From an uncultured Gammaproteobacteria bacterium (GTDB lineage: Bacteria; Patescibacteriota; Microgenomatia; Levybacterales; GWA1-39-11), in NCBI GenBank assembly GCA_964406795.1, contig CAYOTA010000008.1, forward strand, positions 1-56,223: a stretch of DNA of 56,223 bases, read 5' to 3'. Positions 1,954 through 24,754 of this stretch are shown piece by piece. Numbering within the stretch: the stretch's first letter is position 1; every line of letters begins with the position of its first letter. Below the pieces are notes generated by a model. The model was not told the DNA's origin. It worked only from the letters and a program-made list of their open reading frames with translations, and did not search any database. The translations under genes and the position numbers were made by a program.

Positions 1954-2868
1954 CTATCTTTTTTTGGCGAGTTTGTGGAATGGGTGGTAGTTAAAGCGTC
2001 CTTCAGCAATAAATATACCCAAGAACACGAGAATTGATCCTATCATAAAGTAAATGGTAGGTGATTCCCCTAAAAGCGGGTAGGCTATAATTACTGCAAT
2101 TATAGGATCCATATAAATAAAGAGCCCCACGTCCTCAACCGGCATATATTTAAGAGCCCACGTGTGCAAATAATACGCTATAACTGATGACAAAATAGCA
2201 CCAAAAAGAATTCCTAGTATTACCTGCTCATTGATTATGGGTAAAAATCCCACTCGCTGGATTTCATCAAAAAACATGGGTAGAAATCCCAGTGTTCCTA
2301 TTAAAAATGACCAAAATGTAATAGTGAGTGGGTCGTATCGTTTTATAATTTTTTTAATAAGAATTGCTGAGATTACACTTCCAAACATGGATAACACCAG
2401 AAACACATTACCTAGTAGTGATATATCAAATCCATGCTCAATTCCGGGAATAATAACAATACCGAGTATTCCTAAAAGGCCGGTGAGTCCGCCTAAAATT
2501 GTGCGTTTTTTAAGTTTGTCTTTTAGAAATATAAACCCAAAAAGAATTATAAAAAGAGGAGCAGAGGAGGCTATAATAGGAGCGTTTATACTGTCAGAGT
2601 ACTCTAGACCCAGGAAGAAAAAAGAAATGTTAATGGTGATACCGGTGAGCGCAATTACTATAATTGAGAAAAAGTCCTTGGGTTTAACCTGTAATTTATT
2701 TTTTACAAATGGGAGTAGGATAAGTGTTGCAAGCCCAAACCGCAGGATAGCCAACGTAAAGGGTGGGGTAGACATGAGCGACCATTTAAAGATGGGCGCG
2801 GCAGCTCCCCAAATAATATTGGCAATGATTAACGCAAAAATGGCTTTTTGGACAGTTGTAAGTCTCAT
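1954..2868 (-). CDS. EamA/DMT-family transporter
   Basis: 304 aa, about 10 hydrophobic helices in a two-fold repeat architecture typical of EamA domains. Confidence 0.75.
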   Translation of the reverse strand: MRLTTVQKAIFALIIANIIWGAAAPIFKWSLMSTPPFTLAILRFGLATLILLPFVKNKLQVKPKDFFSIIVIALTGITINISFFFLGLEYSDSINAPIIASSAPLFIILFGFIFLKDKLKKRTILGGLTGLLGILGIVIIPGIEHGFDISLLGNVFLVLSMFGSVISAILIKKIIKRYDPLTITFWSFLIGTLGFLPMFFDEIQRVGFLPIINEQVILGILFGAILSSVIAYYLHTWALKYMPVEDVGLFIYMDPIIAVIIAYPLLGESPTIYFMIGSILVFLGIFIAEGRFNYHPFHKLAKKR

Positions 2869-2910
2869 ATTTTTATTGTTCGAGTGAAAGGAGAACTGAA
2901 ATTATATCTA

Positions 2911-3165
2911 TTAATAATTACTCCATAGTGCTTCTTTTTTCTTCCTACTAAAATCTTTAACTTGATGCTCACGTTCCCTTGCCTGTGTTATGTTTGTAAA
3001 TTCTTCTGTCCATTTAAGTTCCTTGAATCCATGTTTTTCTGTGAACCTACTACCTTTTCCTGACCTATGCTGCTCAAGTCTTTGCTCAAGATTCCAAGTG
3101 ATACCAGTATAATAAAGTCCATCCATGCATTCAATGATGTAGACAATCCACTTCCATTGTTTCAC
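2911..3165 (-). CDS. GIY-YIG nuclease-domain protein (UPF0213-like)
   Basis: 84 aa. VYIIEC..GLYYTGIT...LEQRLEQH matches the GIY-(10)-YTG core with a downstream Arg/Glu helix. Confidence 0.75.
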   Translation of the reverse strand: MKQWKWIVYIIECMDGLYYTGITWNLEQRLEQHRSGKGSRFTEKHGFKELKWTEEFTNITQAREREHQVKDFSRKKKEALWSNY

Positions 3166-3259
3166 ATAATTAAGAGTATCAAATTACTATTCGGGATAAA
3201 ATTAGGAAACATACTATTTAGACTTCTCACTGTGTTCGAAGAATATAATTTAGGAAGAT

Positions 3260-4477
3260 TTAGCTTAACATCTGTATCGCATCGGAAACAGTCGCAGTTT
3301 TTTGCTCACGGGTGTCCAACGCTTTAATAGTTACCATACCTTTTTCTTTTTCTTCCGGTCCAATAGTTACCATGTAAGGGATTTTTTTCTTGATCGCATA
3401 TTTTAGTTGTTTTTCCATTTTTGCATTCGGATCTAGGTAGAGTTCTGTATTAATGTTATTGAGGCGCAATTCTTGCGCCAGCTTCTCTGAGTCAGGAAGG
3501 GAAATTTCATCAAACACTGTAACAAGCACTTTGGTAACTGACGGGCTTATTTTAAGCAGATTTTGGGACTCAAGCGCTTCCATCAGTCTATCAAATCCAA
3601 AGGCAAATCCTACGGCTGGTATGCTTGATCCTGAATTTATTGAAGGAGAGAACATTCCAATTAAATTATCATACCTTCCGCCACCGCCCACTGATCCTGC
3701 ATCATATCCTTCTATTTCAACTTCTATAATAATACCGGTGTAATAATCCAGACCGCGAGCAAGAGTTGGTTCAAAGGTTATCCAACTGCTAACTTCTAAC
3801 TTCTGACTACTAACAATATTAATTATTTCTTGAATGCGTTCTGTTGGTTTTGAATTCCTGACTGTTTCCAGGATTGCCTCATCAAGCCCTTTGGATGTTA
3901 GCTCGAGCCTAACACCATCTTCTCCAATTTTTTTCAGTTTATCAATTGCAATGATGGCTTCTTTTGGAACATCTTTAAAAGTTGCCCGGTCGTTTATTAA
4001 AATCTTGAAGTTTTTAAATCCAAGTCGTTCTAAAGCTGCCTTGGCAACCATTAGAATTTCGGAGTCCGCTGAGGCTGAATTAACCCCTGCAATATCTATG
4101 TCACATTGTAAAAACTCCCTAAACCTTCCTTTTTGTGTGTTTTCACCTCTCCATACATTTGACACTTGATAGCGTTTAAAAGGGGAGGAGAGTTGCTCAC
4201 CGTACTGGGCAACCACACGGGCTAGCGGAACAGTCTGGTCATACCGCATGGCGACACGTCTGTCGCCATTATCGGTAAATCTGTACATTAATTTATCTCC
4301 CTCATCTCCGTACTTTCCCATGAGGATTTCCTCATACTCCAGAGCAGGGGTTTCTAATGGTTCAAATCCATAAGACTCAAACACTTTTTTCAAAGTGTCT
4401 ATGACATATGTACGTTTCCTGGCTTCTTCGGGTAAAAAGTCCCTAAATCCTTTAAGTGTTTGAATATTTTGTGCCAT
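3260..4477 (-). CDS. hisS: Histidyl-tRNA synthetase
   Basis: N-terminus MAQNIQTLKGFRDFLPEE, class II motifs, GGGGRYDNL (HisB motif) and a C-terminal anticodon-binding domain. 405 aa. Confidence 0.9.
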   Translation of the reverse strand: MAQNIQTLKGFRDFLPEEARKRTYVIDTLKKVFESYGFEPLETPALEYEEILMGKYGDEGDKLMYRFTDNGDRRVAMRYDQTVPLARVVAQYGEQLSSPFKRYQVSNVWRGENTQKGRFREFLQCDIDIAGVNSASADSEILMVAKAALERLGFKNFKILINDRATFKDVPKEAIIAIDKLKKIGEDGVRLELTSKGLDEAILETVRNSKPTERIQEIINIVSSQKLEVSSWITFEPTLARGLDYYTGIIIEVEIEGYDAGSVGGGGRYDNLIGMFSPSINSGSSIPAVGFAFGFDRLMEALESQNLLKISPSVTKVLVTVFDEISLPDSEKLAQELRLNNINTELYLDPNAKMEKQLKYAIKKKIPYMVTIGPEEKEKGMVTIKALDTREQKTATVSDAIQMLS

Positions 4478-20725: not shown

Positions 20726-21709
20726 ATGGGAAAAATTGAAGGAATCAGAGTGCCTTTTCAGTACTATTGGGCTTCAGCTCAGTATCCATCGCATAATCGA
20801 CATGTTTTAGAAAAATTAAAAAATGAGCAGGCTGTGTCAAAAAATTTGGGGCATGCTGAAAGCTTAATGGAGATAAAAGATCCTCAAGGACATATTGATA
20901 GTTTTACAAAACATATGCAAGGAGATAATTCGGTCGGAATTGTAATTGCAAACCATGATCAACATGTAAATATTGCAGCCTTTTTAAAAACTCTTAAAAG
21001 AGTAAACCAAACATCACAGAAAGACTTACACCATCATTTAATCGTTACGTTGTCCCTTATTAATGGAGACCAAGGAGTTGACTTGCAAAGATTTGCTCTT
21101 GGAATGATTCCGATACTTGAAGAAAACAACATGAAAATGTCAGGCATTATGAGAAAGAAAGATGAGAAAGAATTCTACCAACCTTTCAATAAAGACGCCA
21201 AGAAAACACAGGTCGATCTAATTCAAGATACAAATGCTGCTTTAAGAAATATGATGCATTTACGAAGAAGTTTTCTAAAGGGGGAAATTATTTGGTTTTT
21301 CCCGGCAGGAACTACCACAGAAGGAACCATAAACCCTGATACTGGGCAGGATGTTGGCATGGACGATGTAGAAAATGAATCTCTTGCGGGTTTTATGACT
21401 GCCGCGCAAAAAAGAGGAAAGGACATGAAGGTTTTATCGTTAAGCTTGAATGGTTGTAATTTAATTGTACCTGCCAGAGAAACAAAGGCAACAGATCTTG
21501 CGCGTGAAACTGTAAAGTTTAATATGACATGGGGAAAAGTGTCTGGTAAGCCATTTCACATTGCAGAAATTATACCAGGAGAAATATACGGGCCGAATGA
21601 TTTAATAAACGAAGGTGTTAGTTTAGAAAATGGCCAACAGGTGAATACAGCTGCCCTTGAACGAATCGCAATAAATGTAGAACCTAGAAGGCGTGGGAAA
21701 TTTGCCTAA
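20726..21709 (+). CDS. Hypothetical protein, distant PlsC-like acyltransferase resemblance
   Basis: IVIANHDQHVN and FFPAGTTTEG recall acyltransferase motifs I and III (NHxxxxD, FPEGT), but the HX4D Asp is not conserved. Low confidence in the function. Confidence 0.4.
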   Translation: MGKIEGIRVPFQYYWASAQYPSHNRHVLEKLKNEQAVSKNLGHAESLMEIKDPQGHIDSFTKHMQGDNSVGIVIANHDQHVNIAAFLKTLKRVNQTSQKDLHHHLIVTLSLINGDQGVDLQRFALGMIPILEENNMKMSGIMRKKDEKEFYQPFNKDAKKTQVDLIQDTNAALRNMMHLRRSFLKGEIIWFFPAGTTTEGTINPDTGQDVGMDDVENESLAGFMTAAQKRGKDMKVLSLSLNGCNLIVPARETKATDLARETVKFNMTWGKVSGKPFHIAEIIPGEIYGPNDLINEGVSLENGQQVNTAALERIAINVEPRRRGKFA

Positions 21710-21716
21710 GCTATAT

Positions 21717-21802
21717 TGGTGGGCAAGGAGGGACTTGAACCCTCATAGCATTGCTGCCAAAGGTTTTTGAGACCTTCGCGTATACCATTCCGCCACTTGC
21801 CC
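21717..21802 (-). tRNA. tRNA-Leu (anticodon CAA), type II with long variable arm, CCA encoded
   Basis: The reverse complement reads GGGCAAGTGGCGGAATGGTATACGCGAAGGTCTCAAAAACCTTTGGCAGCAATGCTATGAGGGTTCAAGTCCCTCCTTGCCCACCA. It has a 7-bp acceptor stem, anticodon stem AAGGT/ACCTT with loop CTCAAAA, and T-arm GAGGG-TTCAAGT-CCCTC. Confidence 0.9.
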
Positions 21803-21811
21803 AAATATTTA

Positions 21812-22060
21812 TTACTTACTAAACAAATTACTTTTCATCCATCTACGTCCTGCAGACGATTTAAAATACTTTTCTTTCACTATAGATTCTTTTTCTGTTA
21901 TAAATGCTTCTGAATATATAACTTTCCAAGGTTTATATCTTTTAGTATATTTACTATTTCCATTATTATGTTCTATAAGTCTATTTTCTATATCCTTAGT
22001 ATGTCCAACGTATGTTTTAGTTCCCAAAAAGTTCAATAAAATATATGTAATATATTTCAT
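21812..22060 (-). CDS. GIY-YIG nuclease-domain protein
   Basis: MKYITYILLNFLGTKTYVGHTKDIENRLIEHNNG carries the GIY-YIG core (YIL...TYVGHT, R, E, N). The track ORF runs on to 22120, but that extension only translates a tandem DNA repeat (SSLGG twice). Confidence 0.7.
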   Translation of the reverse strand: MKYITYILLNFLGTKTYVGHTKDIENRLIEHNNGNSKYTKRYKPWKVIYSEAFITEKESIVKEKYFKSSAGRRWMKSNLFSK

Positions 22061-22144
22061 ACCATTCCGTCCGCCTAGGCTCGACGAGACTGGTCCGCCT
22101 AGGCTCGACGAGTCAAACACCTAGTCGAGACTGGCCACTTGCCC
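22059..22144 (-). pseudogene. Split remnant of the tRNA-Leu 5' end (nt 1-11 and 12-21) interrupted by a 65-nt insert
   Basis: The reverse complement of 22134-22144 is GGGCAAGTGGC, which equals tRNA nt 1-11. The reverse complement of 22059-22068 is GGAATGGTAT, which equals tRNA nt 12-21. Together they match 21 of 21 positions of the intact tRNA at 21717-21802. Confidence 0.8.
22069..22133. repeat. Tandem 24-nt repeat (second copy carries an internal 17-nt insertion)
   Basis: GTCCGCCTAGGCTCGACGAGACTG at 22069-22092. The next copy, GTCCGCCTAGGCTCGACGAG-(tcaaacacctagtcgag)-ACTG, is at 22093-22133. Both contain the GCCTAGGC palindrome. Confidence 0.9.
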
Positions 22145-22186
22145 GCGTTTGATTTCGACTTCTTTGTATTATATACTGTGTTGGCT

Positions 22187-24754
22187 ATGACGGCAAGAAA
22201 AAAAGCTACAAAATCAGTGCGACTTTCTCCTCACATAGAGCCCCTTCGTTATAAAATTTATTTAGAACCTGACCTGGAAAGCTTCACATTTGTAGGTACA
22301 GAGGAAATAGAGATAAAAATTTCAGAGTCAACCAAACTTATTAAGCTTCATGCAGCAGAACTTCAAATCTCTGAGGTTTCCGTTATGCAAGGAAAAGTTT
22401 CTCAAAATGCCTCTATTAAGTTTTTAGAAAAGGAAGAAGAAGTAGATTTTGTATTCAAGTCGCCACTAAAAGAGGGTAAGGCAACTTTAAAAATTTCATT
22501 TACTGGAATATTAAATGACAAAATGCGCGGATTTTACAGAAGTAAATATACTCATGAAGGAAAAGAATATCACATGGGGGTGACTCAGTTTGAAAGTACA
22601 GATGCACGTCGTGCATTTCCTTGTTTTGATGAGCCATCGCAAAAAGCAGTATTTGAAGTTACCCTAAAAATTCCTGAAGACAGAACTGCGATTTCTAACA
22701 TGTTAGAAGAAGAGGTAACAGAACACAAAGATGGATATAAAATAATTAGATTTTCAGAAAGTCCCAGAATGTCATCATATCTTTTAGCATTTATTATAGG
22801 GCATTTTGAATTTATAGAAGACAAAACGAGAGACGGGGTTGTCGTGCGGGTTTTTGTAACTCCAGGTAAAAAAAATCAGGCAGAATTTGCGCTGTCAGTG
22901 GCCGTTAAAACACTTGAATTTTACACAGATTATTTCAAGATAAAATATCCGCTTCCCTCCATGGATTTGGTTGCCATTCCGGATTTTGCAGCAGGAGCCA
23001 TGGAAAACTGGGGAGCTGTAACGTATCGGGAAACAGCACTGTTAGTTGATCCGGAAAATTCCTCCACACATAATAAGCAGTGGGTCGCATTGGTAATTGC
23101 GCATGAGTTAGCACATCAGTGGTTTGGAAATTTAGTCACCATGGAGTGGTGGACTCATTTGTGGCTTAACGAAGGGTTTGCATCATACATGGAATATGTT
23201 GCAGTAAATCATATGTTTCCTGAATGGAATATATGGACGCAGTTTGTATATATGGACCATGCCAGAGCACTAGAACTTGATGGGCTCAAAAACACACACG
23301 CTATTGAAGTAGAAGTAAACCACCCGGCAGAGATATCGGAAATATTTGATGAAGTATCATATTCCAAAGGAGCATCTGTTATCAGAATGTTAGCGGAATA
23401 TTTAGGTTACTACCAATTTAGAGACGGTCTGCGATTTTATCTTAAAAAGCATTCATATAAAAATGCTGAAACAGGGGAGTTGTGGGAGGCATTAGAACAT
23501 GCATCTAAAAAAGATGTCGCAAGTATTATGAAGAATTGGACAGGGGAGCCGGGATATCCGTTACTTAACGTTGAGAAAAAAGGCTCAGTTGTAACTATTT
23601 CACAAAAAAAGTTTTTCTCAAGCATTTTTTCACAGAAAACAATTGACACAACCCAATGGATGGTTCCAGTAAGTGTTATGTCAAATTCAGGAAATCAGGA
23701 ATTTTTACTGGACCGCAAATCACAAAAAATAAATGTGCCGCACGGGTGGGTTAAACTGAATAAAGATGAGACTTCTTTTGCACGCGTAAAATATGATGAA
23801 AATTTACTGCAACTTTTAAAAACACCTATAGAAAAAAAATCAGAAGCACTTTCTGAGCAGGACAGGTTTGGAATAATTAGAGATGCATTTGTATTATCAG
23901 AAGCTGAATTTTTGTCAGCGGATCAGGCATTAAACTTAGTTACTTCTTATAAAAATAATACCAGCTATATTTCTTGGGCAGAGATTGCAAGCGACATGGG
24001 AAAGATTAAAAATCTTTTGTTTGGTGAAAAAATATATAATGATTTTGAAAATTTTATAGTTGAATTATTTACAAAAATTGGTGATACAGTTGGCTGGGAA
24101 AAAAAGAAAAATGAGGATCATTCAATTACGCTTTTGAGAAGTATAGTGCTTGGGGTTTTGGCACGTAATAAAGATAAAAAAACTGTTGAAAAAGCATTGG
24201 ACTTATTTAAGAAAGATAAAGCAGGTAGTATAAAACTTGATTCAGACCTGAGAAGTATGGTGTATGTAGTGGCAGCAGAAAATGGTAGTGAAAAAGAATA
24301 CACATATTTTATGAAGCGTTACAAAGAAGAGGTATTTCAGGAAGAAAAAGATAGAATTTTGCGAGCGCTTTGTGCATTTAAAGATAAAGTAATTTTGCAA
24401 AAAGTGCTAGATTTTGCATTTACAGATCAAGTAAAAGCGCAAGACTCATTTAAAGTTGTCACATTTATTGCCGGAAATCCTCACGGGCGGGACTTGGCTT
24501 GGAAAAAGGTGAAGAAGGAGTGGGGGAGTATTGAGAAAAAATTTGGTGGCGGTCATTTGTTTACCAGATTTGTAAAACCATTTGCTGTGTTTACAAATAC
24601 TATTGATGCAAAAGCACTGGAGACATTTTTCAAAAAACAAAATTCTCAGGGACTTGATAGAACTATCCAGCAAGTGCTGGAGCAAATTAAAAGTAATGCC
24701 GAGTGGAAAAAACGTGATTTAAAAAAGATAGAAAAATTCCTCAAAACTCGCTAA
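22187..24754 (+). CDS. pepN: M1-family aminopeptidase N (with ERAP1-like C-terminal domain)
   Basis: GAMENWG exopeptidase motif and HELAHQWFGN...WLNEG zinc motif (HExxH-18-E). The first ATG, at 22187, is preferred over the track start at 22139. Confidence 0.9.
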   Translation: MTARKKATKSVRLSPHIEPLRYKIYLEPDLESFTFVGTEEIEIKISESTKLIKLHAAELQISEVSVMQGKVSQNASIKFLEKEEEVDFVFKSPLKEGKATLKISFTGILNDKMRGFYRSKYTHEGKEYHMGVTQFESTDARRAFPCFDEPSQKAVFEVTLKIPEDRTAISNMLEEEVTEHKDGYKIIRFSESPRMSSYLLAFIIGHFEFIEDKTRDGVVVRVFVTPGKKNQAEFALSVAVKTLEFYTDYFKIKYPLPSMDLVAIPDFAAGAMENWGAVTYRETALLVDPENSSTHNKQWVALVIAHELAHQWFGNLVTMEWWTHLWLNEGFASYMEYVAVNHMFPEWNIWTQFVYMDHARALELDGLKNTHAIEVEVNHPAEISEIFDEVSYSKGASVIRMLAEYLGYYQFRDGLRFYLKKHSYKNAETGELWEALEHASKKDVASIMKNWTGEPGYPLLNVEKKGSVVTISQKKFFSSIFSQKTIDTTQWMVPVSVMSNSGNQEFLLDRKSQKINVPHGWVKLNKDETSFARVKYDENLLQLLKTPIEKKSEALSEQDRFGIIRDAFVLSEAEFLSADQALNLVTSYKNNTSYISWAEIASDMGKIKNLLFGEKIYNDFENFIVELFTKIGDTVGWEKKKNEDHSITLLRSIVLGVLARNKDKKTVEKALDLFKKDKAGSIKLDSDLRSMVYVVAAENGSEKEYTYFMKRYKEEVFQEEKDRILRALCAFKDKVILQKVLDFAFTDQVKAQDSFKVVTFIAGNPHGRDLAWKKVKKEWGSIEKKFGGGHLFTRFVKPFAVFTNTIDAKALETFFKKQNSQGLDRTIQQVLEQIKSNAEWKKRDLKKIEKFLKTR

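Follow-up and report, generated by a model that had tools for sequence, protein, structure and literature searches.

A gene encoding a small GIY-YIG nuclease is lodged in a tRNA-Leu(CAA) locus of the 56,223-nt stretch of DNA analysed here (hereafter the window), where it separates an intact tRNA from a stranded and split copy of that tRNA's first 21 nucleotides, and comparison with relatives suggests that the arrangement is probably the product of a minimal selfish cassette that colonises tRNA genes by nuclease-driven homing with co-conversion. The minus-strand order of six parts given in the original prediction (tRNA nt 1-11, repeat insert, nt 12-21, ORF, spacer, and complete tRNA) was recovered by direct reading, exact to the base (Table 1).

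Table 1. Features of the tRNA-Leu(CAA) locus and its neighbour in the window
Feature	Positions	Strand	Basis or remark
Sigma-70-like promoter, TTGCCG-17 nt-TATAAT	22168..22196	-	Best promoter-like site in the region, 10/12 matches
Stranded tRNA-Leu nt 1-11, GGGCAAGTGGC	22134..22144	-	Exact 11-nt repeat of 21792-21802
65-nt GC-rich palindromic insert, type A	22069..22133	-	Splits the stranded tRNA copy
Stranded tRNA-Leu nt 12-21, GGAATGGTAT	22059..22068	-	Exact repeat of 21782-21791
82-aa GIY-YIG nuclease ORF with stop codon	21812..22060	-	Pfam PF01541
9-nt spacer, ORF stop codon to tRNA	21803..21811	-	Direct reading
Intact tRNA-Leu(CAA), encoded CCA	21717..21802	-	ARAGORN; Rfam tRNA model, 61.8 bits vs threshold 29
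Divergent M1 aminopeptidase gene	22187..24754	+	Pfam Peptidase_M1_N, Peptidase_M1, ERAP1_C

The promoter is that of the original tRNA-Leu gene and now lies 5' of the stranded fragment, the first part of which (GGGCAAGTGGC) is the start of the overwritten resident tRNA gene. It presumably drives both the ORF and the tRNA; the 9-nt spacer is too short to hold a promoter of its own for the tRNA, and no terminator-like site was found in the region. The intact tRNA, the sole one detected by ARAGORN in the 56-kb window, is the functional copy, whether supplied by the cassette or regenerated. The last two bases of the stranded fragment form the AT of the ORF's ATG (22060-22058), and the repeat holding GGAATGGTAT runs one base longer (CGGAATGGTAT) among the repeat families of the window, so the boundary of the insert is ambiguous by one C. 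Mechanical ORF calling began the GIY-YIG gene at a GTG at 22120 (102 aa), a start that was rejected because the extension merely translates the palindrome and the homologue alignment backs the ATG at 22060. The M1 gene was likewise called mechanically from 22139, with the likely ATG at 22187, as the alignment to the homologue in locus L003 begins at residue 22. In Rfam searches of 21500-22400 at E <= 1, the tRNA alone was matched, with no intron, ribozyme or leader family.

Using the M1 aminopeptidase gene as a synteny anchor for locating empty and filled sites, about 16 relatives were found in which M1-peptidase/tRNA-Leu(CAA) synteny is kept and the promoter leads straight into the tRNA, with neither ORF nor fragment (L093-L096, L099, L103, L114, L115, L132, L142, L147, L148, L154, L157, L159, and L161). 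At the four empty sites with a measured spacing (L093, L095, L096, and L103), the promoter box AGTATATAATA lies 13-29 nt ahead of tRNA nt 1, the promoter-to-fragment spacing is 23 nt in the window and in L091, and the window's stranded fragment occupies the position of the tRNA start in the empty-site relatives. These empty sites support the proposed insertion into the D-arm of an ancestral tRNA-Leu gene. The same M1-linked locus is filled in the window, L092, L003/L013, and L091, and it appears to have been invaded repeatedly, because its ORFs are only 35-63% identical to one another and its palindromes differ. The insertion model was held to fail if relatives without the ORF still carried the split fragment; about 16 of them do not, whereas L098, L102, and L106 keep a remnant. 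Given that the remnants of L098 and L102 differ in type from the adjacent tRNA, these three loci are best read as decayed cassettes. The concern that the fragment might be a leader shared by several tRNA genes is ruled out by its match to the local tRNA.

The most informative comparison is that of L092 (filled) with L095 (empty), which are collinear at 84-89% nucleotide identity. The L092 fragment (GGGCAAGTGGC..GGAATGG) is the same as the start of the tRNA in L095, that is, the resident type, whereas the tRNA 3' of the L092 ORF (GCCGAGGTGGTGGAACGG...) is a different tRNA-Leu(CAA), and the TAGAC directly past the second palindrome is of the incoming type. At the level of sequence, this pair demonstrates the replacement of the resident tRNA by a foreign one in L092. 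With a resident fragment upstream and a different tRNA downstream, the whole-tRNA version of the predicted cassette is therefore favoured over one carrying only a 5' portion. The pair, together with the further empty sites, also displays the presence/absence of the ORF at a homologous locus that is characteristic of free-standing homing endonucleases. In L018 and L091, the fragment type again differs from the locus's own tRNA; most loci have a fragment that matches the first nucleotides of their own tRNA exactly, so that target duplication or gene conversion fits as well. The right-hand boundary of the insertion is not fixed by L092 and L095, because their DNA 3' of the tRNA differs for other reasons (a 323-aa unknown protein vs a Fic-domain protein), and the 327-aa gene adjoining the window's tRNA is syntenic in one relative alone (L115).

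Other copies of the ORF beside tRNA genes, anticipated in the original prediction, proved abundant in the survey of homologue loci. A same-strand tRNA was present within 150 nt of 63/80 homologous ORFs and within 650 nt at 68/80 genome loci; a tRNA remnant of at least 11 nt lay on the ORF's other side in 52 of 80 loci, split by an insert in 42 of those 52. Control regions in the same survey gave 4/106 and 0/106. All nine close homologues that could be read through to a tRNA were located upstream of tRNA-Leu (anticodons CAG, CAA, TAG, and TAA), and the design with its palindromes recurs at Leu, Arg, Lys, Gln, Val, and Thr tRNA genes in Patescibacteria and Bacteroidota, with ORF clades and clusters tracking tRNA identity across the two phyla. 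Pedobacter loci include tandem arrays of up to four units, and an intact copy adjoins each interrupted tRNA copy examined. Near-identical ORFs at different loci, which would be a direct sign of recent movement, were not seen in the survey; spread within a genome appears weak, since a second tRNA-Leu of L001, 2 kb off and with a nearly identical D-arm, is unoccupied. Phages as the main vector were rejected given the weak partial matches, and no others, in 50,697 phage records and a single match in IMG/VR. Cultivable carriers comprise Pedobacter, Winogradskyella jejuensis, Maribellus luteus, Indibacter alkaliphilus, and Cecembia lonarensis. A second GIY-YIG ORF of the window (2914-3165), for which no tRNA scar had been noted, indeed belongs to a separate family with 0 tRNAs in 8 loci.

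The 65-nt insert consists of two tandem units, partly deleted (CCAGTCTCGAC...CCTAGGCGGA), contains two perfect 20-nt direct repeats 24 nt apart, and folds into hairpins. Its GC content is 61.5%, compared with a window average of 37.7%, and no GC-rich stem elsewhere in the window is as strong as the one it contains. The motif CAGYCTCGACTAG was found only in L001, L002, L011, and L092, each time following nt 11 of a stranded tRNA copy; the insert is related to CCCGCC...GGCGGG palindromes adjoining GIY-YIG ORFs in the two phyla, palindrome types being common to both. The repeat insert of the original prediction stands as a feature and, far from being incidental, forms part of the cassette family as a conserved palindrome. 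Across the 1.18 Mb of loci scanned, nearly every such palindrome has a GIY-YIG ORF within about 400 nt, and no second copy of the 65-nt insert was present in the 56-kb window, a distribution at odds with the dispersal of MITE/REP-like elements. In agreement with such elements, inverted-repeat ends exist and also bound longer relatives that contain an ORF: in L090 and L063 the ORF lies between palindrome arms, while a palindrome with the same arms is ORF-less at L062 4442-4484. In L090, the arms and ORF form a precise insertion splitting an AbrB-like gene, and their removal in silico restores the reading frame exactly.

Palindromes occur in both orientations (L022 vs L025), and their insertion points cluster at the D-loop (after nt 11, 16-19 or 21). 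A strict insertion motif was rejected, as these positions share no single motif, and no target-site duplication was seen at the palindromes. Several Bacteroidota loci (e.g., L040 and L045) hold near full-length tRNA-Arg copies broken by a palindrome alone. After perfect-stem palindromes had been cut out in silico, rerunning ARAGORN revealed a junction-spanning tRNA in few loci, clearly in L040 and L045, a count that is too low because most palindrome stems are imperfect. Stem mismatches on the ORF-sense strand, counted as a means of separating RNA from DNA structure, amounted to 9 G.T vs 6 A.C, with 39 others, figures compatible with either.

The ORF product matched Pfam PF01541 over residues 2-72 (E = 2.4e-15, 57 bits vs a cut-off of 22.6), and 2,519 clusters at 50% identity reached E <= 1e-10. 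Among 83 of the aligned sequences, Y17, G19, R27, H31, N32, E63, K67, G71, and R72 were at least 95% conserved, with Y17, G19, R27, H31, and E63 at 98-100%; Y6 was invariant among the nine closest homologues. The AlphaFold2 model (pLDDT 92.7) predicts the elements E3-10, E16-21, H24-32, H37-42, E45-53, H56-67, and H69-78, which include the beta-beta-alpha-alpha-beta-alpha GIY-YIG fold, and its Foldseek matches are GIY-YIG structures, the best being 1ZG2 and Slx1 (TM 0.70-0.73), followed by I-TevI (0.55) and UvrC (0.49). Profile searches of PDB sequences ranked 1YWL (9e-8), 1ZG2 (4e-7), SLX1 (7e-4), and I-TevI (0.016), and TIGR01453 was matched weakly (18.8 bits vs a cut-off of 56). By sequence and predicted fold, the protein is nearer to UPF0213 (YhbQ-like) and Slx1 than it is to either the UvrC lineage or that of homing endonucleases. 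Its 82 aa make up a single, catalytic domain, and neither a NUMOD nor a helix-turn-helix DNA-binding module was detected in it by Pfam or in the AlphaFold2 model. This revises, as regards the type of protein, the homing-endonuclease logic put forward originally. The Slx1/UPF0213 lineage is mostly vertically inherited according to Dunin-Horkawicz et al. (PMC1564403), and it reportedly includes a protein in which GIY-YIG is fused to TrmH, the methyltransferase for G18 in the tRNA D-loop (PMC1564403). Substitution ratios indicate that the ORF is under purifying selection (dN/dS 0.04-0.16), the low values spanning species-level divergence in Pedobacter and other genera. The association with palindromes is only suggestive of a structure-specific cleavage of branched or hairpin DNA by the GIY-YIG protein.

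In the favoured reading, the cassette would comprise three parts, namely an 82-aa Slx1/UPF0213-type nuclease gene, a GC-rich palindromic element, and a complete tRNA flush with the ORF. The ancestral locus would have been a promoter followed by tRNA-Leu(CAA), divergent from the M1 aminopeptidase gene. Entry into the D-arm-coding part of this tRNA would have left upstream the resident promoter and, interrupted by the palindrome, tRNA nt 1-21, with the remainder of the old tRNA exchanged for the ORF and an intact tRNA-Leu(CAA). The nuclease may cut the uninterrupted tRNA gene in or near the D-loop-coding DNA, and the break may be repaired from a cassette-bearing copy, with the stranded fragment and the tRNA as homology arms, which would amount to a homing-like spread driven by the nuclease. 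The ORF and tRNA would be co-transcribed from the captured tRNA promoter and the tRNA freed by RNase P, so that the host would lose nothing and could not silence the ORF without silencing the tRNA. The palindrome may break up both the leftover target and the direct repeat, protecting the remnant from re-cutting and the cassette from deletion; alternatively, it might be a structure recognised by the Slx1-like nuclease. Several observations count against this reading: the protein has no DNA-binding domain and groups with a lineage regarded as mostly vertically inherited, the homology arm on the fragment side is just 11-30 nt, the intact tRNA beside the ORF retains the presumed target, and the second tRNA-Leu of L001 is unoccupied. 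The idea that the cassette tRNA is a resistant allele, with a D-arm differing from those of cleavable alleles, was rejected for the window since the D-arm of the window's tRNA is identical to that of the empty sites, and the encoded CCA was discarded as a marker of cassette-borne tRNAs, as it varies among empty sites too. It is possible, if doubtful, that the cassettes form an unrecognised class of minimal elements in which a DNA-structure-guided, Slx1-like nuclease overwrites tRNA genes with its own allele. The target would then be structured DNA, namely its own palindrome in hairpin or cruciform form, tRNA genes whose DNA can fold as a cloverleaf, or both, and no long sequence would be read by a nuclease that lacks a DNA-binding domain.

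The evidence was also weighed against four other explanations. Regarding the palindrome as the primary mobile element, a miniature one with inverted-repeat ends that favours D-loop-like sites and is mobilised by the GIY-YIG nuclease much as REPINs are by a RAYT transposase, with the ORF-tRNA link and the remnants secondary to its insertion and subsequent repair, would account for the arms flanking the ORF in L090 and L063 and the restored AbrB-like frame in the former, the ORF-less palindrome with the same arms in L062, the tRNA-Arg copies of L040 and L045, the occurrence of either orientation and of shared types in the two phyla, and a predicted fold closest to Slx1, a structure-specific nuclease. 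Nevertheless, this explanation is unlikely: palindromes are not dispersed in 1.18 Mb and occupy one locus in the 56-kb window, they show no target-site duplication, and on its own it leaves both the intact tRNA abutting the ORF (63/80) and the foreign tRNA of L092 unexplained. Quite unlikely is a domesticated, vertically inherited host gene whose role is tied to tRNA, such as the defence of tRNA genes against integrating elements, their amplification, or an action on tRNA or pre-tRNA, with the remnants derived from tandem tRNA duplication and decay. The low dN/dS over species-level divergence (strong purifying selection in Pedobacter would also fit a domesticated function), the intact tRNA kept beside the ORF, the TrmH fusion (PMC1564403), the unoccupied state of other tRNA-Leu genes of the same genome, and the tandem arrays, which recall the nuclease-driven segmental amplification reported for SegB (PMC13096335), all speak for such a gene. 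It is opposed by the presence/absence difference and tRNA replacement between genomes that are 84-89% identical, by a locus where sister lineages carry ORFs of only 35-63% identity and about 16 others carry none, by ORF clades that track tRNA type and not host phylum, and by the disruption of a protein-coding gene in L090.

Removal or tolerance of the palindromes at the RNA level, like introns in the D-loop pocket, with functional interrupted copies whose processing the GIY-YIG protein aids, would suit the clustering of inserts around G18/G19 beside variable D-loop pockets, the nearly full length of some interrupted copies, and again the TrmH fusion (PMC1564403). This is very improbable given that an intact copy adjoins each interrupted copy examined, that most remnants are truncated (the window keeps nt 1-21, with the insert inside the D-stem after nt 11), that no Rfam intron or ribozyme family matches, and that stem mismatches have no G.U excess over A.C (9 vs 6). 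Moreover, the known activities of the GIY-YIG superfamily are on DNA. Finally, the window is a metagenome contig, and in L003 duplicated 3' tRNA sequence borders an N gap, so an assembly artefact collapsing two tRNA-Leu loci, or a chance 21-nt match, was considered; its probability is negligible. Assemblies made independently (NCBI, JGI, ENA, and Logan) share this architecture, which rules out the misassembly named as a caveat in the original prediction, and, measured from the promoter, the fragment begins just where the ancestral tRNA did. The 21/21 match had been claimed to exceed chance, and this holds: the contiguous 21-mer occurs once in the window with up to three mismatches allowed and zero occurrences expected, so an ordered 11-mer and 10-mer within 400 nt is not a chance finding.

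If the selfish-cassette reading is true, the element would be one of the smallest self-contained bacterial mobile elements (about 0.35-0.4 kb), in which the cost of inserting into an essential gene is solved by a replacement tRNA and a captured resident promoter. It would assign a function to some of the UPF0213/Slx1-like GIY-YIG proteins, a large group of functional orphans, provide a route for the horizontal exchange of tRNA alleles, and account for tRNA remnants, palindrome-interrupted copies, and tandem arrays that are missed or mis-called by tRNA finders in Bacteroidota and CPR genomes. Should the structure-guided version be correct, horizontal tRNA gene replacement and tandem amplification would extend across Patescibacteria and Bacteroidota. 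A small nuclease targeting conserved tRNA-gene features could also have practical interest, and the cultivable carriers make the cassette reading testable. No published description of tRNA-embedded bacterial GIY-YIG cassettes was found in full-text searches that reached few subscription journals.

Partial tRNA genes left by integrase-mediated elements and prophages have been reviewed (bioRxiv 10.1101/2022.07.05.498093). As in those elements, a tRNA gene target is regenerated here and a partial copy lies at the insert's other end; they are, however, 9-23 kb or larger, encode a recombinase, and usually duplicate a contiguous 3' part, whereas the present insert is 0.35 kb with a 5' fragment split by a palindrome. 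The 82-aa GIY-YIG ORF is the only ORF between the repeats, with no tyrosine or serine recombinase among them, and in place of a contiguous attL/attR-type repeat, the 5' 21 nt are repeated with the upstream copy split 11 + 10 by the 65-nt insert. Nor is the insert a tRNA intron of group I or another kind, as the downstream tRNA is complete and Rfam at E <= 1 matches the tRNA alone. The best sequence and structure matches are UPF0213 proteins (EF2693, 1YWL; BH0048, 1ZG2), which share the minimal GIY-YIG domain without auxiliary domains. UPF0213 and stand-alone Slx1-like proteins have no assigned function, mainly vertical inheritance, and no reported link to tRNA genes (PMC1564403). The cassette ORF differs from them as a tRNA-embedded subfamily, while the second ORF of the window behaves in a UPF0213-like manner.

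REP/REPIN sequences with RAYT and the GC clusters of yeast mitochondria are small GC-rich palindromic mobile elements. The double-hairpin elements of Allomyces, as cited in PMC3787672, are likewise GC-rich and palindromic. Similar to REP/REPIN-type elements, the palindromes described here are short, GC-rich, situated in AT-rich genomes, linked to a nuclease, and found in forms with and without an ORF that share arms; in contrast, their copies are located at cassettes and not dispersed, and the enzyme is a GIY-YIG nuclease instead of a HUH transposase. Beyond its catalytic domain, phage T4 SegB carries a DNA-binding region, and its 27-bp site is centred on the T-arm. Encoded within a tRNA gene cluster, this GIY-YIG homing endonuclease cuts inside tRNA genes, and T4 itself retains sites cleavable by SegB at a conserved tRNA-gene motif (PMC2330249). 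With SegB and related genes of T4-like phages, the cassette shares a nuclease gene among or inside tRNA genes that is absent from the locus in some relatives; co-inherited flanking tRNA sequence and a carrier genome that still holds cleavable sites, as for SegB, would be further likenesses. It differs in its protein, an 82-aa catalytic domain alone of Slx1/UPF0213 type, in being chromosomal in bacteria (with one viral-contig match) and seated inside a tRNA gene, and in leaving a 5' remnant and carrying a GC-rich palindrome.

A similar layout is known from the mobile ORFs of fungal mitochondria, which bring a replacement gene end and displace the native one, as in atp6 of Allomyces and atp6, atp9, cox2, and nad3 of Glomus (PMC3630166). 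There, an endonuclease ORF (LAGLIDADG or GIY-YIG) enters a gene and supplies a foreign version of whatever it displaces, leaving the native part stranded alongside, while the hybrid is expressed from the resident promoter, as presumed here, and close relatives are empty; correspondingly, an ORF inside a gene, a replacement copy, and a stranded native part were observed in the window and in L092 vs L095. The fungal elements are organellar, occupy protein-coding genes, and replace the C-terminal end, whereas the cassette occupies a bacterial tRNA gene, strands its 5' end in a remnant broken by a palindrome, and measures about 0.4 kb as a unit.

On the minus strand of the tRNA-Leu(CAA) locus, the original prediction described a six-part order in which a broken copy of tRNA nucleotides 1-21 precedes a GIY-YIG ORF and the complete tRNA gene, and every item of it was correct in the sequence (see the table). 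The contiguous tRNA 21-mer had a single occurrence in the window against a chance expectation of zero, in agreement with the claim that the 21/21 match is beyond chance, and this tRNA was the only one detected by ARAGORN in the 56-kb window. The 65-nt insert contains two perfect 20-nt repeats 24 nt apart and the strongest GC-rich stem of the window (GC content of 61.5% vs 37.7% in the window), and no second copy of it was found across the window. A 102-aa ORF from the GTG at 22120 was dropped, as the extension merely translates the palindrome and the homologue alignment favours the ATG.

Features of the tRNA-Leu(CAA) locus and the second GIY-YIG ORF in the window
Feature	Position or length	Strand	Remarks
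Sigma-70-like promoter, TTGCCG-17 nt-TATAAT	22196-22168	minus	10/12 matches; best site of the region
Spacer, promoter to fragment	23 nt	minus	
Stranded tRNA nt 1-11, GGGCAAGTGGC	22144-22134	minus	exact copy
GC-rich insert, 65 nt	22133-22069	minus	
Stranded tRNA nt 12-21, GGAATGGTAT	22068-22059	minus	exact copy
ORF start, ATG	22060	minus	shares the last two bases of the GGAATGGTAT fragment
GIY-YIG ORF, 82 codons	TAA stop at 21814-21812	minus	Pfam GIY-YIG, E = 2.4e-15
Spacer, ORF stop to tRNA	9 nt	minus	
tRNA-Leu(CAA), encoded CCA	21802-21717	minus	ARAGORN; Rfam 61.8 bits
Second GIY-YIG ORF, 84 aa	about 2911-3165	minus	28% identical to the first

The encoded protein is under selection, with a dN/dS of 0.04-0.16 in well-aligned close pairs, and residues Y17, G19, R27, H31, N32, E63, K67, G71, and R72 were at least 95% conserved among 83 of the aligned sequences. 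Its AlphaFold2 model was confident (pLDDT 92.7) and comprised a bare GIY-YIG domain. The nearest solved structures by sequence were the UPF0213 proteins EF2693 and BH0048, followed by SLX1, and fold comparison of the model gave TM scores of 0.70-0.73 (rmsd ~1.8 A) for Slx1 nuclease domains, 0.55 for I-TevI, and 0.49 for UvrC. The protein matches the group "Slx1, non-eukaryotic, stand-alone" of Dunin-Horkawicz et al., who reported one fusion to a TrmH-like G18 methyltransferase and made no mention of tRNA-gene linkage (PMC1564403).

A word-indexed protein search revealed eight homologues of the window ORF at 59-67% identity, the named one among them being from Candidatus Microgenomates. All those with readable flanking DNA were located 6-68 nt upstream of a same-strand tRNA-Leu or overlapped the tRNA start, with varying anticodons (CAG, CAA, TAG, and TAA) and genomic contexts. 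Among the compared loci from other genomes and metagenome contigs (L-numbers), L003 was, like the window, syntenic with a divergently oriented M1 aminopeptidase gene (52% identical), and its stranded fragment corresponded to tRNA nt 1-25 with a 32-nt palindrome after nt 18 (CCCGCCTCG...CGAGGCGGG). The L001 fragment harbored two palindromes, one of the window type after nt 11 (CAGCCTCGACTAG...CTAGGCGGGC) and the other after nt 18. In L003, an N run (3404-3502) directly 3' of the tRNA-Leu, after which tRNA nt 35-85 appear a second time, is a scaffolding gap within a repeated tRNA region, where the assembly is uncertain. Several MAG records, including L013 (same contig as L003), L014, L015, L019, L062, L085, L089, and L090, were titled Gammaproteobacteria, Pseudomonadales, or Bdellovibrionales, although their cassettes and neighbours were typical of Patescibacteria, and these taxonomic labels look unreliable.

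The wider family comprised 2,519 proteins at E <= 1e-10 in a profile search of 1.84 billion cluster representatives. In the family set, consisting of the best 80 of 268 encoded relatives (scan with one genome per species), an intact same-strand tRNA was detected within 650 nt of the ORF in 68/80 loci and within 150 nt in 63/80. A remnant of that tRNA (at least 11 nt) was present on the other side of the ORF in 52/80 loci, in 42 of the 80 with an insert (at most 120 nt) dividing it, and control regions 1.4-2.4 kb away gave 4/106 and 0/106. The hosts were mainly Patescibacteria (tRNA-Leu, Lys, Gln, Val, and Thr) and Bacteroidota (mostly tRNA-Arg, with some Leu and Gln). Cassette lineages are tied to tRNA identity: ORF identity clusters tracked tRNA type more than host, and L025 and L042, both Bacteroidota loci with tRNA-Leu, grouped apart from the Bacteroidota Arg loci and together with the Patescibacteria Leu group. 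The ORF of the Pedobacter loci begins within a palindrome-broken tRNA copy, its ATG lying inside nt 47-49, and terminates in the intact tRNA that follows, where nt 8-10 provide the TAG stop. In the Pedobacter locus L080 (2617-3906), four such 310-nt units stand in tandem before the intact tRNA. Tandem arrays of the palindrome-broken tRNA fragment plus ORF were also identified in L060, L079, and L033 (two or more units, one locus being from a Gottesmanbacteria MAG), which suggests amplification of the unit, and the database proteins P0136 and P0139, with two matched stretches each, may be read-through calls across such arrays. In addition, in L155 (100-580, minus strand) a GIY-YIG ORF of another subfamily (32% identical) was located ~150 nt downstream of an intact tRNA-Leu(CAA) and followed by an apparent tRNA T-arm and acceptor 3' end, a mirror arrangement with a 3' remnant also seen in L025.

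As for the second GIY-YIG ORF of the window, 145 homologues at 65-80% identity were found in Microgenomates, representing a very conserved family with varying contexts (adjoining a CCA-adding enzyme, 6-phosphogluconate dehydrogenase, or class II aminoacyl-tRNA synthetase). A tRNA lay near none of the family members examined (0/8 loci), nor was a GC-rich palindrome found beside the window's copy, in line with the absence of a scar noted for this ORF in the original prediction; the tRNA linkage is thus specific to the subfamily of the first ORF.

The comparison of occupied and unoccupied loci revealed that the cassette is gained and lost and enters tRNA genes in the D-arm region. In metagenome contigs located through the M1 aminopeptidase of the window, the empty site that the original prediction proposed to look for was found in ~16 relatives (L093-L096, L099, L103, L114, L115, L132, L142, L147, L148, L154, L157, L159, and L161), in which tRNA-Leu(CAA) lies divergent, just upstream of the M1 gene, with neither GIY-YIG ORF nor fragment. 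In many of these sites the box AAAGTATATAATA occurs 13-29 nt before tRNA nt 1, and the same box precedes the stranded fragment of the window by 23 nt, indicating that the fragment marks the original start of the tRNA gene. This locus was filled in the window, L092, L003/L013, and L091. The last, the closest M1 relative (64% identity), carries a GIY-YIG ORF only 35% identical to that of the window, a fragment extending to about nt 36, and a different palindrome after nt 16 (CCTGCCTGCCGGCAGGCAGG, present also in Bacteroidota loci), suggesting that one tRNA gene was invaded repeatedly by different family members.

The most direct comparison came from L092 (filled) and L095 (empty), which are collinear on both sides at 84-89% nucleotide identity and near-identical up to tRNA nt 1. 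Thereafter, L095 runs through GGGCAAGTGGCGGAATGGTATACGC... into the remainder of its tRNA, whereas L092 reads GGGCAAGTGGC, a 58-nt palindrome, GGAATGG, a 37-nt palindrome, and TAGACAAATG, followed by the ORF and a tRNA-Leu(CAA) whose sequence clearly differs over its whole length (GCCGAGGTGGTGGAACGGTAGACACGCGGG...). The L092 state offers no way to restore the 3' part of the old tRNA, so that L095 represents the ancestral condition and the cassette was acquired by L092. Moreover, the stranded fragment of L092 is of the resident type, whereas the incoming type is seen in the bases that follow the second palindrome and in all of the downstream tRNA, indicating that the cassette brought its own tRNA, the option of a whole-tRNA cassette having been among those predicted. 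The cassette leaves a palindrome-broken remnant and directly adjoins an intact tRNA, which may be a foreign one. Likewise, the anticodon-stem part of the L018 fragment was unlike its tRNA. In most loci the fragment equalled the tRNA 5' end (21/21 in the window, 25/25 in L013, and 30/30 in L015), which could reflect same-lineage donors, for which the GGGCAAGTGGCGGAATGGTAT common to many relatives is cited, survival only of acceptor-compatible products, or gene conversion.

The 3' side of the tRNA in L092 and L095 is a separate hot spot of gene turnover, with a 323-aa unknown protein (2512-3483) in the former and a 344-aa Fic-domain protein (2689-3723) in the latter; in addition, an insertion of 2.4 kb follows the M1 gene of L092 (6546-8940). 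In the window, a 327-aa plus-strand ORF (20726-21709) runs convergent to the tRNA and stops 8 nt short of the tRNA 3' end. This ORF had no Pfam match, was syntenic in L115 only (29% identity), and is probably an accessory gene at this hot spot.

Three relatives without the ORF carry related traces. In L098 (~3973-4000) and L102 (~3959-3990), both on the minus strand, GGGCAAGTGG lies exactly at the ancestral start position, 8-9 nt before a tRNA with a different acceptor stem (GCCCAGG), and L106 (3821-3980, minus strand) has a split fragment and ~140 nt of non-coding sequence. Taken to the letter, these loci count against the predicted insertion, under which ORF-less relatives should not carry the split fragment, but they are better explained as cassettes in which the ORF was lost once the tRNA had been replaced.

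When 1.18 Mb of fetched loci were scanned for CCCGCC...GGCGGG palindromes, nearly every copy was no more than about 400 nt away from a GIY-YIG ORF, and this held for both phyla; the ~730 kb of M1-anchored loci had only a handful. In the remnants they interrupt the D-arm-coding part (after nt 11, 16-19, or 21), sometimes the T-arm (L025), or abut the tRNA start (tRNA-Lys group). The 65-nt repeat insert of the original prediction is present as described and is, beyond this, a variant of this family-wide cassette palindrome; its motif CAGYCTCGACTAG was found only in L001, L002, L011, and L092, always after nt 11. The lack of a palindrome in L095 indicates that the palindromes came with or after the cassette. 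In two Flavobacteriales, the same 41-nt palindrome has opposite orientations relative to the ORF (L022, 354-394; L025, 742-782), as expected if recombination between the arms inverts the asymmetric loop.

We infer from these sequence comparisons that a homing-like cycle drives the spread of the cassette. The nuclease would break an uninterrupted tRNA gene, and repair would copy palindrome, ORF, and tRNA from a cassette-bearing template, with the stranded fragment as the left and the tRNA as the right homology arm. The 9-nt gap and the absence of a terminator between ORF and tRNA in the region scanned suggest that both are transcribed from the captured tRNA promoter, barring a further promoter within the ORF; RNase P would then cut the tRNA free of the ORF transcript. 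The palindrome would shield the remnant from re-cutting, curb direct-repeat deletion, or be the structure recognised by the nuclease. Against such a cycle, the window protein has no DNA-binding domain, the homology arm is short, L001 has an unoccupied tRNA-Leu with a near-identical D-arm 2 kb from its cassette, and the D-arm of the window's tRNA equals that of the empty sites. No near-identical ORFs were seen at different loci among those compared.

An alternative that keeps real weight is that the palindrome came first and the GIY-YIG protein mobilises a miniature palindromic element. In L090 (2960-3280) and L063 (2960-3315), which favour it, the palindrome arms flank the ORF instead of adjoining one side, with no tRNA nearby. 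Arms and ORF in L090 form a precise insertion splitting an AbrB-like gene, and deleting CCCGCCCGCC...ORF...GGCGGACGGG restores the uninterrupted reading frame (...EKYGWKEKQK...), indicating that arms and ORF are capable of joint insertion outside tRNA genes; the short palindromes resemble versions of this unit that lack the ORF. This alternative leaves the flush tRNA and the foreign tRNA of L092 unexplained. As a side observation, the C-terminal 15 residues of a small membrane-protein gene in L063 apparently occur twice, once on either side of the element (WLVLFLAIAFLIIIRY* and LILFLIIAFIIVASK*), which would be the protein-gene counterpart of the tRNA case. A domesticated gene with a tRNA-linked function would fit the purifying selection, but not the presence/absence pattern, the repeated invasions, and the clades tracking tRNA type. 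Removal of the palindrome at the RNA level is unlikely, given the intact partner beside every interrupted copy examined and the truncation of most remnants. Assembly artefact was excluded, as the design recurs in independent assemblies.

In the full-text literature searched, outside which most subscription journals lie, no account was found of bacterial GIY-YIG cassettes that are embedded in tRNA genes and leave remnants broken by a palindrome, and known partial tRNA genes have been attributed to integrase-borne elements of 9-23 kb (bioRxiv 10.1101/2022.07.05.498093). Precedents for the homing-like cycle proposed here are T4 SegB, a GIY-YIG homing endonuclease in a tRNA cluster that recognises a conserved tRNA-gene motif and whose own genome keeps cleavable sites (PMC2330249), and the mobile ORFs of fungal mitochondria, which bring along a gene end of foreign origin and push aside the native end (PMC3630166). 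The cassette is rated as a variant within a kind already known, that of selfish nuclease genes of the homing type which supply a substitute for the part of the gene they displace; its enzyme type is unusual, its palindrome conserved, and its distribution wide.
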